Assembly (NCBI GenBank): GCA_947085505.1
Contig: CAMTWI010000001.1
Location: forward strand, 1 to 44,943
Reading direction: 5' to 3'
Origin: an uncultured bacterium
GTDB taxonomy: Bacteria > Patescibacteriota > Minisyncoccia > Phycocordibacterales > Phycocordibacteraceae
Length of the DNA stretch: 44,943 bases
The notes under the pieces are model-generated. The model was not told where the DNA came from. It worked only from the letters and a program-made list of their open reading frames with translations, and ran no database searches. A program made the translations under genes and the position numbers. Shown one piece after another: positions 525-25,370 of the stretch; positions within the stretch are counted from its first letter, which is position 1; each line of letters begins with the position of its first letter.

Positions 525-540
525 CCCCGAAAGGGAACAA

Positions 541-574
541 AGCAAAACCGTCCGAGAGGGCGGTTTTGCTTTTA
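541..574 (+). terminator. Intrinsic terminator after rpsJ
   Basis: AGCAAAACCGTCC-GAGA-GGGCGGTTTTGCT followed by TTT. Confidence 0.85.
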
Positions 575-619
575 TATGTAGCCTATGAGATGTTCATTCC
601 AGAAAGGGAGGCACAGCAC

Positions 620-889
620 ATGAATCTGTCTCGATGGTGGCGTATGCGTCAAGCGCGCAAGCGACGCTCGCTTATAACGAAGCTACGGTTGGCAAATCGC
701 TCACTGCAGTACTCGTACGAAGGCATGAGAGCAAACCAGGCGTATCAGCCGGTCTGTTTGGGTGGCGTGGAGGACAAGTACGAGGGCGAACTCGAGTGGC
801 AAGGCAGGATCCACTACTGGAGCTGCGAAGTCAGGCATCTCGCACGCAAGCTTCGCCTCACCCGGGAACAGGCGGCCATATACCGGTAA
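620..889 (+). CDS. Small basic hypothetical protein (89 aa)
   Basis: SD AAAGGGAGG 9 nt before ATG 620; hairpin at 906-933 downstream; no recognised family. Confidence 0.65.
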   Translation: MNLSRWWRMRQARKRRSLITKLRLANRSLQYSYEGMRANQAYQPVCLGGVEDKYEGELEWQGRIHYWSCEVRHLARKLRLTREQAAIYR

Positions 890-905
890 GGGTCTGATTC
901 GGACA

Positions 906-933
906 GAGCCCCGTTGCAAGAGCAACGGGGCTC
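906..933 (+). terminator. Hairpin, likely terminator after the 620 ORF
   Basis: GAGCCCCGTTGC-AAGA-GCAACGGGGCTC. Confidence 0.65.
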
Positions 934-1013
934 CCTCTATTTGAAGCGTGTTGCGTTGGTTGTGCGAGAGCAGTATGCTCACCCTCTGTTCTTTGTTTGG
1001 AAAGGAGACCCGC

Positions 1014-1295
1014 ATGGGCTTTGTAAGGAGTAGCAAACCTACTGACGAGGTGATACGCGAACGCAAGCGTCTTGCCGGAGTTGGGGTGGTTCTAAAGGCC
1101 ATGCATGATGCACGGCCGCCAGAAACGGGAGTAACGAGACTGCCCCCGCTTACGAAAAAGCTTTGGAACAAGAAGGCGAGACGGTACCGGTACGAAAGAG
1201 GAATCGTTATCGCTGGAAAGAAGGTGGGTGGAAGGTTTACGACCGCCCCTGACGATGCTCCATCAGAGCGCAAACGCAAGAAGCCCCGTCGCTAA
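1014..1295 (+). CDS. Small, very basic hypothetical protein (93 aa)
   Basis: SD AAAGGAG before ATG 1014; Lys/Arg-rich; ends inside the hairpin at 1282-1307. Confidence 0.6.
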   Translation: MGFVRSSKPTDEVIRERKRLAGVGVVLKAMHDARPPETGVTRLPPLTKKLWNKKARRYRYERGIVIAGKKVGGRFTTAPDDAPSERKRKKPRR

Positions 1296-1307
1296 CACGA
1301 CGGGGCT
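1282..1307. terminator. Hairpin between convergent ORFs (possible bidirectional terminator)
   Basis: AGCCCCGTCG-CTAACA-CGACGGGGCT. Confidence 0.6.
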
Positions 1308-1315
1308 CGCTTTAT

Positions 1316-1501
1316 CTAGTCCAGAATGAAGTTCCTTCGAAGCAAGGCTGCGACGTTCCTTCTGTTCTGGCGCTCCATCTCCTCAATTTCGTCGATACAC
1401 TCCTGAGATGGGCTGAGCGAGAGTGCATCAAAGTCAGGGTCTCCTTCCCGTAGAACTACGCGTCCTTCGGTAGGGAACACAAGTATCTTCGCTGTCGGCA
1501 T
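1316..1501 (-). CDS. Small hypothetical protein (61 aa)
   Basis: Strong SD GAAGGAGGT 5 nt before ATG; protein-like composition. Confidence 0.65.
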   Translation of the reverse strand: MPTAKILVFPTEGRVVLREGDPDFDALSLSPSQECIDEIEEMERQNRRNVAALLRRNFILD

Positions 1502-1534
1502 GATGTACCTCCTTCTGTATGAACAGTATCAAAC

Positions 1535-1727
1535 AGGTGGACCCAGCGCGATAGAGTGCGCTGGGCCCGGGTAGAACATGAGGAGCTTTCACTGCCTCAT
1601 GAGAAAAGGATCACCTCCTCACGCGGTGCGCAGGCTGATTCCCGCGCACGCCCTGCTTGCCGCAGGCGGGCATCGAACAATGTGTCGCATGAGAAACCTC
1701 CATCACTGCCAGGCCGAATGCGTGGCT
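1535..1727 (-). ncRNA. Candidate structured small transcript (~190 nt) with an extended SD AGGAGGTGATCC and two short ORFs (1619-1690, 23 aa; 1589-1600, MRQ*)
   Basis: -10 TACACT at 1738-1733; several hairpins; closing GC hairpin at 1539-1568; function unknown. Confidence 0.4.
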
Positions 1728-1778
1728 CCTTTAGTGTACCGAGAATAGGTCCCGTTCTCTGAACATAGGTGTGTATAG

Positions 1779-1806
1779 AAAAAGGCCCGGCGCATGCGCC
1801 GGGCCT
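1779..1806 (-). terminator. Intrinsic terminator for the minus-strand GDGG peptide gene
   Basis: AGGCCCGGCGCATGCGCCGGGCCT with the U-tract only on the minus strand. Confidence 0.8.
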
Positions 1807-1842
1807 CCATCGAGCCTTGGGCTCAGTTGTTTCGGACAGACT

Positions 1843-1968
1843 TCAGGTCTTGGTCCCGCCGTCGCCGAGACACCCGCCCCCGCCGTCTCCGAGGCAGCCA
1901 GTGCCGCCGTCGCCGACGAGGGTGTCGGTACTGATTCCGAGACCGTTGTCTCCTTCGATGTCTTGCAT
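1843..1968 (-). CDS. 41-aa Gly/Asp-rich repeat peptide MQDIEGDNGLGISTDTLVGDGGTGCLGDGGGGCLGDGGTKT (absent from the ORF track; alternative in-frame ATGs at 1980 and 1992)
   Basis: Own extended -10 (TGC-TAGAGT, 2016-2011), 5' hairpin, AGAAAGGA SD-like site, correctly oriented terminator; the 24-nt repeats differ at synonymous third positions in this frame. Confidence 0.7.
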   Translation of the reverse strand: MQDIEGDNGLGISTDTLVGDGGTGCLGDGGGGCLGDGGTKT

Positions 1969-2025
1969 CGGAAAGATCATCCTTTCTGTCATCCAAACGA
2001 TGACAAAGGCACTCTAGCACGGGAT

Positions 2026-2054
2026 TTGCATCGGGAAACAGAACCGTGTATAGT
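2026..2054 (+). promoter_or_regulatory. Sigma70 promoter for the rplC-rplB unit
   Basis: TTGCAT-17 bp-TATAGT. Confidence 0.7.
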
Positions 2055-2154
2055 CCCTGAGTTGCTATGTACGGCGTCTTCGGACCCCGGACCAATGGCC
2101 GGGAGGCTCAAGAGGAGCTGAACGCGCTATTGAAGGCGCGCTTTATTTTTACCC

Positions 2155-4830: not shown

Positions 4831-5655
4831 TTACTTTGTCTTATATTCTGGCTTTAAGATCTCTGCGAGTTGCTCGAGCGGAATCGACACTTTCTGGCTT
4901 CCTGCTGCATAGGGTGCCACCTGATATGGGGGGAACAAGAGAACGAGCGCATTGTCTTTAATAACGAAAGCTTGGTAGTTCAAGGGTTCAGGACCTGTGC
5001 CCTGAGCGATGTATGCAACGTTTGCAAACTCGCCAAGAGACTTCGCGAGCTCGAACTGAGAAATTGCTGAGAGACGACGCAGATAATCGGAACGGGGAAC
5101 AAAGAGACTCGCGATATCAAGTTTTGCACCCGACGTAAGGTCGAACGTGAAGGTGCGATAGAAGGTATTCGGGTGTGCGCCGAGCGTATCTACAAAGAGT
5201 GTATAGGCGTAGGAGACAGTGTTTTTTCCGCGCATCTCCTCGTATGCAATTGTTATGCTCTCCTTTCGGTCCGCAGAGAGACCCATAATCTGGATGTTTT
5301 CAGGTGTAAGGTTGTCGAAGTTGCCTTGTTTCTTGAATTGGCTCACAGAGGCTTCGACAAAGTCTTCCATAGCGGCAACTGCCGCTGCGTCTGCTTCGAC
5401 GCCTAGAGAAGCCTTGAGGGCAGTCTCAGCAGGGTACGTGGCCACGATGTCGAAGTACTGGCCATGCTCCTCGATAACTATAGGGGGAAGTGCTTCTGGG
5501 GTGGTTGTCGCAGTCTCCTCAGGAATACCTGTGAAGGGTTCTGGAGCTTTATGGGTAGCCATGTACCAGACGGTAAAGGCGAGTACGAGTCCTACGAGGA
5601 TAACGACACCAAGGATTTCTTTTTGGCGCGCTTCTGGGGTGTTGAAGTCGATCAT
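4831..5655 (-). CDS. Membrane-anchored DUF3298/DUF4163 (PdaC/RsiV-like) domain protein
   Basis: N-terminal TM helix; GAHPNTFYRTFTFDL and FPPYQVAPYAAG motifs; ATG 5655 is 7 nt after TATACT. Confidence 0.8.
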   Translation of the reverse strand: MIDFNTPEARQKEILGVVILVGLVLAFTVWYMATHKAPEPFTGIPEETATTTPEALPPIVIEEHGQYFDIVATYPAETALKASLGVEADAAAVAAMEDFVEASVSQFKKQGNFDNLTPENIQIMGLSADRKESITIAYEEMRGKNTVSYAYTLFVDTLGAHPNTFYRTFTFDLTSGAKLDIASLFVPRSDYLRRLSAISQFELAKSLGEFANVAYIAQGTGPEPLNYQAFVIKDNALVLLFPPYQVAPYAAGSQKVSIPLEQLAEILKPEYKTK

Positions 5656-5730
5656 GGAGCTAAGTATACGTCCTTGGTACCTCCTTATAGGGTTGTGGTC
5701 GTGGAAATAGCCTAAAAGAGCCCGTAAAGT

Positions 5731-5759
5731 TTGACACTTCCTCACGTTTCCTATAGATT
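5731..5759 (+). promoter_or_regulatory. Sigma70 promoter for the rpsS-rplE unit
   Basis: TTGACA-17 bp-TAGATT. Confidence 0.8.
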
Positions 5760-9531: not shown

Positions 9532-10014
9532 ATGAAAGAAGACATGCCCGGTCTAACCAGGATCGGAAGTTTGGTTGTACCAGATAACCCCGGTGGGTTC
9601 GATGCGGAAAAGTTCATCCGGCCAGGTTCTCCTGGTATCAATGGTGTCGGCGCGAAGCTTGCTGAAGAAATCAAAGAGCATGCGTTGGACTCGGTCTGTG
9701 GGGGAAAAGTACTGTTCTACCGGTCCTCCTATGCCGAAACCAATGAGATTCCCGAGGCACTGCGAACCACGTCACAGCCAATCAACTGGTGGCAACTGTA
9801 CTGGGCTCTCCAGTGGCCTGGCGTCGAACTGTTCAAGGCGCTCAGGTACAAGGATCAGATTGGTTGCTTCGTCGTGATTGGGCGAGGTTCTCGGCCTGTT
9901 CGCGTTAAGCTCGATTGGAGGGAGGGTCACAGTATAGGTGGCAGGCCCACAGATCAGCCCAACTGGGCCTGGAACGAGGGCACCATCTTCGCTGTCCAGG
10001 AGCCAAGATTCTAG
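9532..10014 (+). CDS. Hypothetical Trp-rich protein (160 aa) inserted in the spc cluster
   Basis: SD GAGGAGG before ATG 9532; UUCG-capped hairpin downstream at ~10044-10066. Confidence 0.75.
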   Translation: MKEDMPGLTRIGSLVVPDNPGGFDAEKFIRPGSPGINGVGAKLAEEIKEHALDSVCGGKVLFYRSSYAETNEIPEALRTTSQPINWWQLYWALQWPGVELFKALRYKDQIGCFVVIGRGSRPVRVKLDWREGHSIGGRPTDQPNWAWNEGTIFAVQEPRF

Positions 10015-10096
10015 AAGAACCTTGTGCGCTGTTGCACACAGAAAGGCTCCGCTTCGGCGGAGTCTCTCACTTTGTATGCGGGACGGCTTCATTGGT

Positions 10097-10125
10097 TTGA
10101 CAGCCTACTTCCTAGCTGATAGATT
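10097..10125 (+). promoter_or_regulatory. Sigma70 promoter for the rpsN-secY unit
   Basis: TTGACA-17 bp-TAGATT (with TG extension). Confidence 0.8.
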
Positions 10126-10157
10126 GTCTTTACGGCTCCCCGGAGCTATTTTTTCTT

Positions 10158-10427
10158 ATGGCCAAAGCATCCCAAATCGCCCGCAATGAAAAGCGCATTA
10201 AGCTCGTCGCGAAGTACGCTGACAAGCGCGCTGCTCTTAAGGCTGCAGGTGATTGGGAGGGCCTTCAGAAGCTCCCGAAGAACTCGAGCCCTACCCGCGT
10301 GAAGAACCGCTGTGCGGTTACGGGACGCGGACGCGGCTACATGCGCCCGTTCGGCCTTTCCCGCATCATGTTCCGCGAGCTCGCCCGCGAGGGTAAGATT
10401 CCGGGCGTTAAGAAGGCATCCTGGTAA
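10158..10427 (+). CDS. rpsN: 30S ribosomal protein uS14, 89-aa zinc-independent type
   Basis: [25 protein letters not shown]...GVKKASW; only one Cys. Confidence 0.98.
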
Positions 10428-10434
10428 TTTTCGT

Positions 10435-10824
10435 ATGGTATCTGACCGCGTAGGAGATTTCATCATCCGCCTCAAGAATGCAGGCGCAATCAACAAGCCG
10501 ACTGTGTCGGTGCCTTTCTCGAAGCATGTCGAGGAAATCGCGCACAAGTTGAAGTCTCTTGGCTACGTCGCTGAAGTTTCGAAGGGAAAGAAGCCCTATG
10601 AGTTCGAGGTTACCCTCGCGTACGATGAGCGCGGCCGCCACGCAATCAACGGCGTAAAGCGCGTCTCAAAGCCAGGTCGTCGTCTCTACACCCCGTCCGC
10701 AGAAGCGCACAGCGTAAAGAACGGTATAGGCGCTCGTCTCATCTCGACTCCTCGTGGTGTTCTTACGGACGCTGAGGCACGTAAGGTCCGTGTCGGCGGC
10801 GAGAATCTCTTCGAGATCTGGTAA
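10435..10824 (+). CDS. rpsH: 30S ribosomal protein uS8
   Basis: DRVGDFIIRLKNA...RVSKPGRRLY...ISTPRGV. Confidence 0.97.
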   Translation: MVSDRVGDFIIRLKNAGAINKPTVSVPFSKHVEEIAHKLKSLGYVAEVSKGKKPYEFEVTLAYDERGRHAINGVKRVSKPGRRLYTPSAEAHSVKNGIGARLISTPRGVLTDAEARKVRVGGENLFEIW

Positions 10825-10839
10825 TTCTATTTCAGTACT

Positions 10840-11730: not shown

Positions 11731-12360
11731 ATGACTGACACTACTACTCTCGACACAAATACCGACGCACCAGCAGTTGTCCCAGAGGCAGCGGTTGAGG
11801 CGCAGGCTCCGGCTGCAGACGCAGCAGCAACTCCAGCTCGTGGCGGATTCCGTGGAGCTCAGCGTGGCCGTGGAGGACCTGGTGGAGGACGTAGGGATTC
11901 TCGTGGCCCTCGCGCTCCTCGCGAGCGTTCTGAGTTCGAGCAGGCTACCCTTGAGGTTCGTCGAGTGGCTCGCGTTATGGCCGGTGGTCGTCGTTTCTCT
12001 TTCTCTGTGACCGTTGTTATCGGCGACAAGAAGGGAAGGGTTGGTGTAGGTCTTGGTAAGGGTGCTGACACCGCACTTGCTATCGACAAGGCAGTTCGCG
12101 ACGCTAAGAAGCACCTCATCACCGTAAAGCGCACCCCCGAGAATTCAATCGCACACGATGTGTCGGTTAAGTACTCGTCTTCCATTGTTACTATCATCCC
12201 TTCTCCGGGCCGTGGTGTGGTGGCAGGATCAGCTATGCGTACCGTACTTGAGCACGCAGGCGTCACTAACGTAATCGCAAAGATTCTCACTCGCACTAAG
12301 AACAAGCTCACCATCGCTCGCGCAACGGTAGCTGCGCTTGCAATGGCCGGTTCCCGCTAA
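11731..12360 (+). CDS. rpsE: 30S ribosomal protein uS5 with long acidic/Ala then RGG-rich N-terminal extension
   Basis: RRVARVMAGGRRFSFSVTVVIGD...VGVGLGKG. Confidence 0.97.
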   Translation: MTDTTTLDTNTDAPAVVPEAAVEAQAPAADAAATPARGGFRGAQRGRGGPGGGRRDSRGPRAPRERSEFEQATLEVRRVARVMAGGRRFSFSVTVVIGDKKGRVGVGLGKGADTALAIDKAVRDAKKHLITVKRTPENSIAHDVSVKYSSSIVTIIPSPGRGVVAGSAMRTVLEHAGVTNVIAKILTRTKNKLTIARATVAALAMAGSR

Positions 12361-12371
12361 TCCTTATTTCT

Positions 12372-12824
12372 ATGCAGTCCAACACTCTCCAACCTAAGAC
12401 CGTCCGCATAACAACACCTCGCGTTGGTCGTGGTGGTAAGCGCGGCAAGACCTCGGGCCGCGGTACCAAGGGACAGAACGCTCGCGCAGGACACAAGAAG
12501 CGTCCTGAGATGCGCGACATTTTGAAGAAGCTTCCAAAGCGTCGTGGACACGGAAAGAACCGTGCGCGTACGGTGCGCGCAAAGCGTCATGAGTACGAGC
12601 CAATCAACCTCTCAACCCTTGAGGCTGCGTTTGATGCTGGTGACACGGTTAACCCAGAGACGCTCTACAAGAAGGGCCTTATCACTGCGCGCGGCGGCAA
12701 GGTCTCGTACGTAAAGATTCTCGGTACTGGTACGCTTACAAAGAAGCTCTCAATCTCAGCGTGCTCGTTCTCAGAAGCAGCCAAGAGTGCTGTTGAAAGC
12801 GCGGGAGGTTCAATACTCGCCTAG
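12372..12824 (+). CDS. rplO: 50S ribosomal protein uL15
   Basis: RVGRGGKRGKTSGRGTKGQNARAG; VKILGTG. Confidence 0.96.
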   Translation: MQSNTLQPKTVRITTPRVGRGGKRGKTSGRGTKGQNARAGHKKRPEMRDILKKLPKRRGHGKNRARTVRAKRHEYEPINLSTLEAAFDAGDTVNPETLYKKGLITARGGKVSYVKILGTGTLTKKLSISACSFSEAAKSAVESAGGSILA

Positions 12825-25293: not shown

Positions 25294-25370
25294 TGGTGCA
25301 CCCTCTTGGATTCGAACCAAGGACCGCGGAGGTATAAGCTCCGTGCTCTAACCAACTGAGCTAAGGGTGC
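25294..25370 (-). tRNA. tRNA-Ile, anticodon UAU, CCA encoded
   Basis: GCACCCT/AGGGTGC acceptor, D-arm GCTC/GAGC, anticodon arm CGGAG-CTTATAC-CTCCG, T-arm CTTGG-TTCGAAT-CCAAG, ACCA. Confidence 0.92.

Follow-up and report, generated by a model that had tools for sequence, protein, structure and literature searches.

The DNA analyzed here, a window of 44,943 nucleotides (nt) from an uncultured bacterium of the Patescibacteriota (contig CAMTWI010000001.1), carries between the ribosomal protein genes rpsJ and rplC a short minus-strand gene for a peptide of 41 amino acids (aa) that contains three tandem eight-residue units centered on the motif GDGG. A 5′ hairpin, a Shine-Dalgarno (SD) site, the open reading frame (ORF), and a terminator had all been listed in an initial annotation of the window, and each was found on the minus strand at the same place (Table 1). 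The 5′ hairpin folds at −13.7 kcal/mol within 45 nt (2010-1966), which is modestly more stable than the shuffled background (z = −1.95; 9 of 200 shuffles equal), and its 3′ arm shares 3 nt with the start of the SD site. The terminator region, folded over 73 nt, reaches −34.1 kcal/mol (z = −3.78), a value that none of 200 shuffles equaled. Further in-frame ATG codons lie at 1980 and 1992 (49-aa form); the closest homolog, P0001, begins at the position of the ATG at 1968.

Table 1. Coordinates of the peptide gene, its signals, the surrounding island, and the phage members. Positions refer to the window unless a phage is named.
Feature	Position	Strand	Details
−10-like extended box TGcTAGAGT	2019-2011	minus	read from the sequence
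5′ hairpin TGTCATC-GTTTG-GATGACA	2007-1985	minus	presumed 5′ end of the mRNA; 9-bp stem, 2007-1999 with 1993-1985
SD-like site AGAAAGGA	1987-1980	minus	11 nt 5′ of the ATG at 1968
41-aa peptide coding sequence MQDIEGDNGLGISTDTLVGDGGTGCLGDGGGGCLGDGGTKT	1968-1843	minus	stop codon TGA (1845-1843); ORF list and same-frame homologs
Three tandem 24-nt units, LVGDGGTG / CLGDGGGG / CLGDGGTK	1920-1849	minus	Tandem Repeats Finder, direct-repeat families D2 and D4, codon table
Intrinsic terminator	1806-1777	minus	perfect 12+12 palindrome 1806-1783, AGGCCCGGCGCA/TGCGCCGGGCCT, then TTTTCT
Island	525-2154		1.6 kb between rpsJ (S10, 168-524) and rplC (L3, 2155-2769); four SD-led, terminator-bounded small genes
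ORF A, 89 aa	620-889	plus	SD site AAGGGAGG; terminator 906-933
ORF B, 93 aa, basic	1014-1295	plus	SD site GGAAAGGAG; terminator 1282-1307
ORF C, 61 aa	1501-1316	minus	SD site AGAAGGAGG; shared bidirectional terminator 1281-1308
Caulobacter phage CcrPW gp145 = HOU00_gp441 (YP_009809314.1)	113987-114100 (CcrPW)		located by motif scan of the phage record
Caulobacter phage CcrColossus ortholog (AFU88008.1)			unnumbered coding sequence annotated as hypothetical protein; genus Colossusvirus

The repeat stands out within the window. Tandem Repeats Finder reports it at 1855-1916 with a period of 24 nt, 2.6 copies, and 78% matches, the top score of the 10 rows obtained for the 45 kb. The three units are encoded by CTC GTC GGC GAC GGC GGC ACT GGC, TGC CTC GGA GAC GGC GGG GGC GGG, and TGT CTC GGC GAC GGC GGG ACC AAG. 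Within the C-L-G-D-G-G part every codon difference between repeats is synonymous, and the pairs TGC/TGT, GGC/GGA, and GGC/GGG occur exactly as the initial annotation had described them.

Homologs of the peptide were sought with increasingly inclusive queries. A single-sequence search with the 49-aa form against a protein set of 5.8 billion clusters returned three small proteins from five candidates, the best of which was P0001 (E = 1.3e-6; 71% identity in the aligned part). A profile of four sequences yielded 16 matches at E ≤ 10 from 303 candidates, with a lowest E of 2.4e-18, and a 17-sequence profile, run exhaustively against 1.84 billion representatives, yielded 17 proteins at E ≤ 0.001, three of them at E ≤ 1e-10. 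At E ≤ 0.001, 15 of the 17 were judged to be true small peptides, and P0018, P0020, and P0021 were accepted as additional members. P0017 (1593 aa) and P0019 (137 aa) were dropped as unrelated repeat proteins. Together with an ortholog from phage CcrColossus, described below, the family set comprises 21 sequences.

The members of this set are 32-67 aa long, contain 19-40% glycine, and carry a negative net charge in 19 of 21 cases. Their unit consists of eight residues, hydrophobic-G-D-G-G-(S/T/G)-x-(C or other), and occurs one to five times per peptide; successive units are spaced by exactly eight residues in 34 of 42 instances across the 21 members. Among the 62 units, in which positions 2-5 are fixed as G-(D/N)-G-G by the definition of the pattern, position 1 is I, L, or V in 49, position 6 is S, T, or G in 60, and positions 7 and 8 are glycine and cysteine, respectively, in 25 each. 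Most members have an aromatic motif (REIDTGW, EGW, or WPxD) ahead of the first unit, and a C(F/Y)PIKDD tail closes five of them, with PIKDD found near the N terminus in two. Inspection of the 21 sequences by eye revealed neither a membrane segment nor a hydrophobic stretch at the N terminus. The window peptide, with three units at spacings of 8 and 8 in 41 aa, falls within the octad pattern (at least two units in fewer than 70 aa), and it stops three residues past the last GDGG, as members of the family most often do. Ahead of its units, the window peptide and P0001 have EGDxGLGxSTDTL, in place of the aromatic motif, a feature better viewed as a difference between subfamilies than as grounds for exclusion. 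Read-through of the TGA or a frameshift that would regain the PIKDD tail was considered and rejected, as the downstream frames, inspected by eye, do not encode the tail.

The family is absent from all libraries searched and, as a sequence family, new. For the peptide and for P0001-P0003, P0005, and P0007, searches of Pfam, NCBIfam, PHROGs, and PADLOC turned up no family, although not each peptide was compared with each library; the ESM Atlas gave no usable match for the peptide, and the literature searched, judged by title or abstract, contained no relevant description of GDGG-octad peptides. A likeness to P-loops, raised by the occurrence of GDGGTG in papers on G domains and the Ran GTPase, was dropped since the Walker A lysine is missing in most units. 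A pattern search of species-representative genomes added no member. It used the single pattern G[DN]GG[GT]GCLG, which misses the commoner GCIG members, and of 203 stretches only one passed tblastn; this locus (L001), from Paracoccus indicus, lies antisense inside a 325-aa ORF (9848-10825) taken as the real gene and was rejected as a false positive. A tblastn search of phages gave nothing for P0011 and chance-level matches for P0009 (E 6-10), with a low-complexity filter that hid even the record of P0005 itself. The GDGG-octad family is rare.

A conceivable objection is that the ORF is not functional. It could be a decaying copy, or it could arise incidentally from a GC-rich 24-nt tandem repeat with several open frames; the hairpins would then serve the divergent L3 promoter region. 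Other frames are indeed open across the repeat (1769-2017 and 1771-2121 on the plus strand, 1823-2095 on the minus strand), and the window peptide has neither the aromatic N-terminal motif nor the PIKDD tail. These three frames gave no Pfam hit, and homologs were found for the GDGG frame, the sole frame put through the homolog searches. Homology also extends beyond the repeat, with 12 of 17 aligned columns of the non-repetitive N terminus identical between the window peptide and P0001. The synonymous differences within C-L-G-D-G-G and the common type of ending argue in the same direction, and the SD site and the strong terminator frame exactly the ORF at 1968-1843. A non-functional ORF is therefore very improbable. 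Because significant same-frame homologs exist for both the single-sequence and the profile query, the ORF is beyond chance, and on this comparative evidence it very probably represents a translated member of a conserved peptide family.

The members with names come from phages. P0005, annotated as a hypothetical protein, comes from Caulobacter phage CcrPW and was matched at E = 8.1e-4 with the four-sequence profile and at E = 4.1e-6 with the 17-sequence profile, and a related phage, CcrColossus, encodes an ortholog of 52 aa, compared with 37 aa in CcrPW. All insertions and deletions between the two are in frame, and repeat number thus differs even between these close relatives. The 34 codons that can be aligned differ by 12 synonymous and two non-synonymous changes, and third positions account for 13 of the 16 base changes. 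With mostly synonymous changes and length differences that preserve the frame, the phage gene shows the pattern expected of translation and purifying selection in the GDGG frame. Selection on the peptide, which the initial annotation had suspected from the repeats alone, is thus borne out by the phage orthologs; the retention of the frame among homologs, whose absence it had named as grounds for abandoning the gene, and the variation in repeat number that it had proposed to check, now seen as one to five units, likewise came out in its favor.

In both phages the peptide gene begins 4 nt past the stop codon of the o-spanin gene, in the order endolysin, holin, i-spanin, o-spanin, peptide, terminator. 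Such a position in a lysis cassette is found for these two Colossusvirus members and not for the window gene, which is surrounded by three small ORFs together with rpsJ and rplC. When 551 nt around the CcrPW gene served as a blastn query, 12 phage records matched, among which the peptide part was covered only by those of CcrPW and CcrColossus (two each); in Brevundimonas phages and in Ccr5 the spanin part was matched and the peptide part was not. Brevundimonas phage Kabachok has no peptide ORF after its o-spanin gene. The lysis cassette is described in the phiCbK genomics paper, whose passages on spanins and the lysis cassette make no mention of the small gene (PMC3556154).

This arrangement would be compatible with a peptide that is cargo released by lysis and acts outside the cell, as a bacteriocin-like, signaling, or envelope- or S-layer-directed cation-binding peptide. 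An export signal would be unneeded, because lysis by holin, endolysin, and spanins frees the peptide; its place as the last gene of the cassette and the sequences without an evident hydrophobic segment both fit. The window gene, however, has no lysis gene nearby, and the related Brevundimonas phages and Ccr5 share the spanin region and not the peptide, which makes release by lysis a decidedly unlikely explanation for the family. Because these relatives keep the spanin region without it, the peptide is not a core lysis function.

The surroundings of the phage gene offer some further observations. A gene resembling TROVE/Ro60-vWA proteins converges on it. On its 3′ side, a promoter-like site, TTGACA...CATAAT, and about 490 nt free of ORFs were noted (CcrPW 114100-115999; L009:3031-4851), and Rfam contains no family matching this phage spacer. 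The large terminase subunit of CcrPW (L003:31980-34700) carries an intein splicing domain according to Pfam.

In the window, the peptide gene belongs to an island of small genes between S10 and L3, every one of which has its own terminator. No family for ORF A or ORF B was found in Pfam, NCBIfam, PHROGs, or PADLOC. ORF C, likewise without a match at a meaningful E-value in these libraries, shows a weak likeness to DUF2735: Pfam aligns its residues 3-21 at E = 0.14, and the ESM Atlas gives a score of 0.89 for a DUF2735 cluster from Pseudomonadota. This possible relationship serves as a lead only. The island differs from the rest of the window in its translation signals: with an SD site defined as GGAG, GAGG, or AGGA at −20 to −4, and with gene starts picked by hand, all four island genes have one, compared with two of 39 Pfam-supported core genes (Fisher p = 1.2e-4). 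This contrast suggests that the island is foreign or specially translated, and with the phage homologs it puts a mobile or phage origin at about an even chance.

Several features of the intergenic regions were recorded alongside. S10 has its own terminator hairpin (539-572), and therefore L3 is not co-transcribed with S10. Upstream of L3 lie a promoter-like sequence, TTTGCA-18-TATAGT (2025-2054), and, ending 8 nt before the L3 ATG, a GC hairpin with a T-run (2123-2146); the region 2025-2146 may act as a leader or attenuator. The terminator hairpins that end ORF A (907-940) and ORF B (1282-1315) are 34 nt each and 76% identical, and their tail motif GGCxCGCTTTAT is found again at 2135-2146 before L3 (families D1 and D3). 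Rfam searches over the gap at 450-2250 gave only sub-threshold chance hits (E 0.19-0.8).

Based on the composition of the family, a simple model would suggest that the peptide acts as translated, with no dedicated modifying enzyme. It would be disordered when alone, and its repeated glycine turns would expose aspartate carboxylates, backbone carbonyls, and, where present, cysteine thiols. The exposed groups would provide for binding of a divalent cation or for docking to a target protein, with a valency set by the number of units. The island would have been gained horizontally from a phage or another mobile element, and in the phages the peptide may be released or used at lysis. AlphaFold2 models are consistent with disorder: the window peptide has a mean predicted local distance difference test score of 50.9 and the five-unit P0016 one of 50.1, with no secondary structure in either, although these models are ion-free and ion-dependent folding is outside their reach. 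A complex prediction for two peptide copies together with four Ca (score 0.02, mark 0.42) is evidence neither for nor against binding. A profile search of the PDB at E ≤ 10 returned nothing meaningful, its best match (E = 3.7) being an unrelated stretch of ELAC1. An unmodified, disordered, polyanionic peptide that binds cations or proteins is the best-supported account, offered as a tentative proposal.

Alternatively, the peptide could be the precursor of a ribosomally made, post-translationally modified peptide (RiPP), as favored in the initial annotation, with an N-terminal leader, with each G-D-G-G-(S/T)-G-C unit as a core, and with a maturase encoded elsewhere. Candidate chemistries include Cys-Asp thioethers, Ser/Thr-Asp esters formed by ATP-grasp enzymes, azol(in)es at Gly-flanked Cys, Ser, or Thr, and aspartimide at Asp-Gly. 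The family has the appearance of such precursors in being small, with a variable count of near-identical units behind a more conserved N terminus; glycine precedes the Ser/Thr at position 6 and the Cys at position 8 of the units, and the window peptide contains two Cys-X2-Asp motifs. In addition, CcrPW encodes an R2K-clade ATP-grasp protein and two proteins resembling 2-oxoglutarate- and Fe(II)-dependent oxygenases.

The enzymes and the cysteines do not follow this expectation. In agreement with the initial annotation, which saw no modifying enzyme in the window, a Pfam scan of 56 ORFs in the 45 kb revealed no maturase, protease, or exporter, and none lies beside the phage gene. Radical S-adenosylmethionine (SAM) enzymes, YcaO proteins, and lanthipeptide enzymes are absent among 154 CcrPW ORFs of at least 250 aa (record positions 2001-290000, all of it past the first 2 kb of the terminal repeat), and no NCBIfam precursor model matches. 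Cysteine fills position 8 in 25 of the 62 units and is missing there from the other 37, and P0010 is free of cysteine. The end of a lysis cassette in a lytic phage is not known as a setting for a RiPP. The proposed co-occurrence with radical SAM or ATP-grasp genes was seen beside neither the window gene nor the phage gene: the motif C-L-G-D, which occurs twice in the window peptide, has no radical SAM/SPASM partner of the kind expected for a ranthipeptide or SCIFF (six cysteines in forty-five) peptide, and an ATP-grasp gene linked to and co-occurring with the peptide, as expected for a graspetide, was found neither in the window nor in CcrPW, where the R2K protein (gp332, L004:34574-35509, annotated as hypothetical) is encoded about 122 kb from the peptide gene. 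Relatives of this ATP-grasp occur in 61 phage records, mostly of jumbo phages of Caulobacter, Brevundimonas, Rhizobium, Erwinia, and Xanthomonas. It does not track the peptide, because Kabachok has the ATP-grasp and a post-spanin site without the peptide. With no maturase in either genomic context examined and a cysteine that is not constant, the multi-core precursor found no support and is an unlikely reading; an enzyme encoded at a distance could still exist, because the CcrPW scan covered ORFs of at least 250 aa and genomic contexts were examined for three of 21 members, the window gene and the two from Colossusvirus. Two further export- or processing-related possibilities were set aside. 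Double-glycine leaders place a hydrophobic residue at −4, which here is at −5, and a lipoprotein was dropped for want of a signal peptide.

Taken as a whole, the account of a real gene, a conserved family, a horizontally acquired island, and an unmodified binder is given a probability of roughly 45%, and a number of observations weigh against one or another of its parts. At the gene itself, the extended −10 element claimed in the initial annotation is present as a box, yet no convincing −35 accompanies it and a consensus scan found no minus-strand promoter there; the promoter is for this reason only putative. The 11-nt gap between the SD site and the ATG is on the long side, and the Trp/Phe N-terminal motif of most members is missing from the window peptide and P0001. 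The horizontal step draws on SD usage, with its hand-picked gene starts, and on phage homologs only, and blastn found no counterpart of the 1.63-kb island among plasmids or phages. The binding step is the most doubtful. It is read from composition alone, and no metal- or protein-binding family was found in Pfam at E ≤ 1, in NCBIfam at E ≤ 10, or in the PDB profile search at E ≤ 10. A modifying enzyme might well target the invariant Asp, the conserved Ser/Thr of unit position 6, and the Cys that is frequent at position 8; the small number of contexts examined bears on the claim that none is dedicated to the peptide, and the units depart from the best-known calcium-binding repeats in ways described below.

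The remainder of the window is that of a reduced genome. The best named relatives of its L3 protein are from Candidatus Paceibacterota (81% identity) and Parcubacteria (75%), which fits the assignment to the Patescibacteria; in the closest Paceibacterota genomes, L3 is 85-94% identical. Genes follow in the order S10, L3, L4, L23, L2, and S19, then L18, S5, L15, and SecY, and others encode translation factors, transfer-messenger RNA and SmpB, FtsH, RecG, type IV pilus components, and LigA. A 304-aa DUF3298 gene (4831-5745, minus strand) breaks the ribosomal protein operon between L2 and S19 and belongs to the pair of core genes that have an SD-like site. At 11731-12824, L15 begins 11 nt after S5 with no L30 gene between them, an absence that fits genomes of the candidate phyla radiation. 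A tRNA-Ile with the anticodon TAT was identified by ARAGORN and the Rfam tRNA model (25294-25370, minus strand); this tRNA is an uncommon bacterial way of reading AUA.

Proteins shorter than 50 aa are routinely missed, and in this case a reading of the sequence by itself led to a conserved family. About 20 members were found among 1.84 billion protein clusters, and the only named ones are the two "hypothetical proteins" of Caulobacter jumbo phages. By joining a reduced Parcubacteria genome with alphaproteobacterial phages, the family points to a mobile accessory peptide, and an SD-led island in a genome mostly without SD sites is an unusual sign by which genes that are foreign or specially translated may be recognized. 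Caulobacter crescentus with CcrColossus or CcrPW provides a tractable system for a peptide whose patescibacterial host is uncultured. If unmodified, the peptide would be a minimal Gly/Asp repeat. Two bolder readings, both improbable, would carry the matter further. Were the family to found a RiPP class of its own, modified by a maturase encoded elsewhere, each unit would be closed to a small ring through a thioether between Cys and Asp, an ester between Ser/Thr and Asp, or an Asp-Gly aspartimide; lytic jumbo phages would encode the class last in their lysis cassettes and set it free by lysis, and reduced Parcubacteria genomes would borrow it. Equally, were it an unmodified eight-residue "mini beta-roll," it would fold only around a divalent cation and would represent the shortest known Gly/Asp cation-binding repeat.

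Precursors of microcin B17-type linear azol(in)e peptides have a Gly-rich core. The octads resemble it in their glycine content and in the glycine that precedes Ser/Thr and Cys; they differ in that their Asp is invariant, no leader family is recognizable, and YcaO- or McbBCD-like genes are missing from the window and from the CcrPW ORFs of at least 250 aa. Freyrasin, a ranthipeptide, contains thioethers at Cys-X3-Asp/Glu that are made by the radical SAM enzyme PapB. The freyrasin precursor PapA is likewise a short peptide with tandem Cys-Xn-Asp motifs, of which the window peptide has two in the form C-L-G-D, and PapB is reported to accept such spacings with n = 0-6 (PMC9413430). Unlike in ranthipeptides, the invariant part of the GDGG family is G-D-G-G, with a dispensable Cys, no NCBIfam match, and no radical SAM/SPASM neighbor.

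Repeats-in-toxin (RTX), or hemolysin-type, calcium-binding repeats are nonapeptides of the form GGxGxDxUx (PF00353) that are disordered without their ligand. The GDGG peptides share with them tandem Gly/Asp-rich turns that alternate with one hydrophobic residue, and the low-confidence AlphaFold2 models fit this likeness. The period of the GDGG units is, however, 8 rather than 9, the order of Asp and hydrophobic residue differs, there are one to five units, and a secretion signal is lacking; PF00353 nonapeptides are not present in the window peptide, which has no Pfam match at E ≤ 1.

The phage peptides of CcrPW and CcrColossus have an N-terminal REIDTGW motif, which is missing from the window peptide. 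Their genes sit translationally next to o-spanin within a lysis cassette; the window gene, by contrast, is found by itself between rpsJ and rplC. Phage and window peptides are alike in being small and acidic, in having no evident signal sequence, and in carrying IGDGG-x-G-C-type octads at a spacing of 8, and the likeness extends to their last residues, GDGG-TKI in CcrPW and GDGG-TKT in the window.

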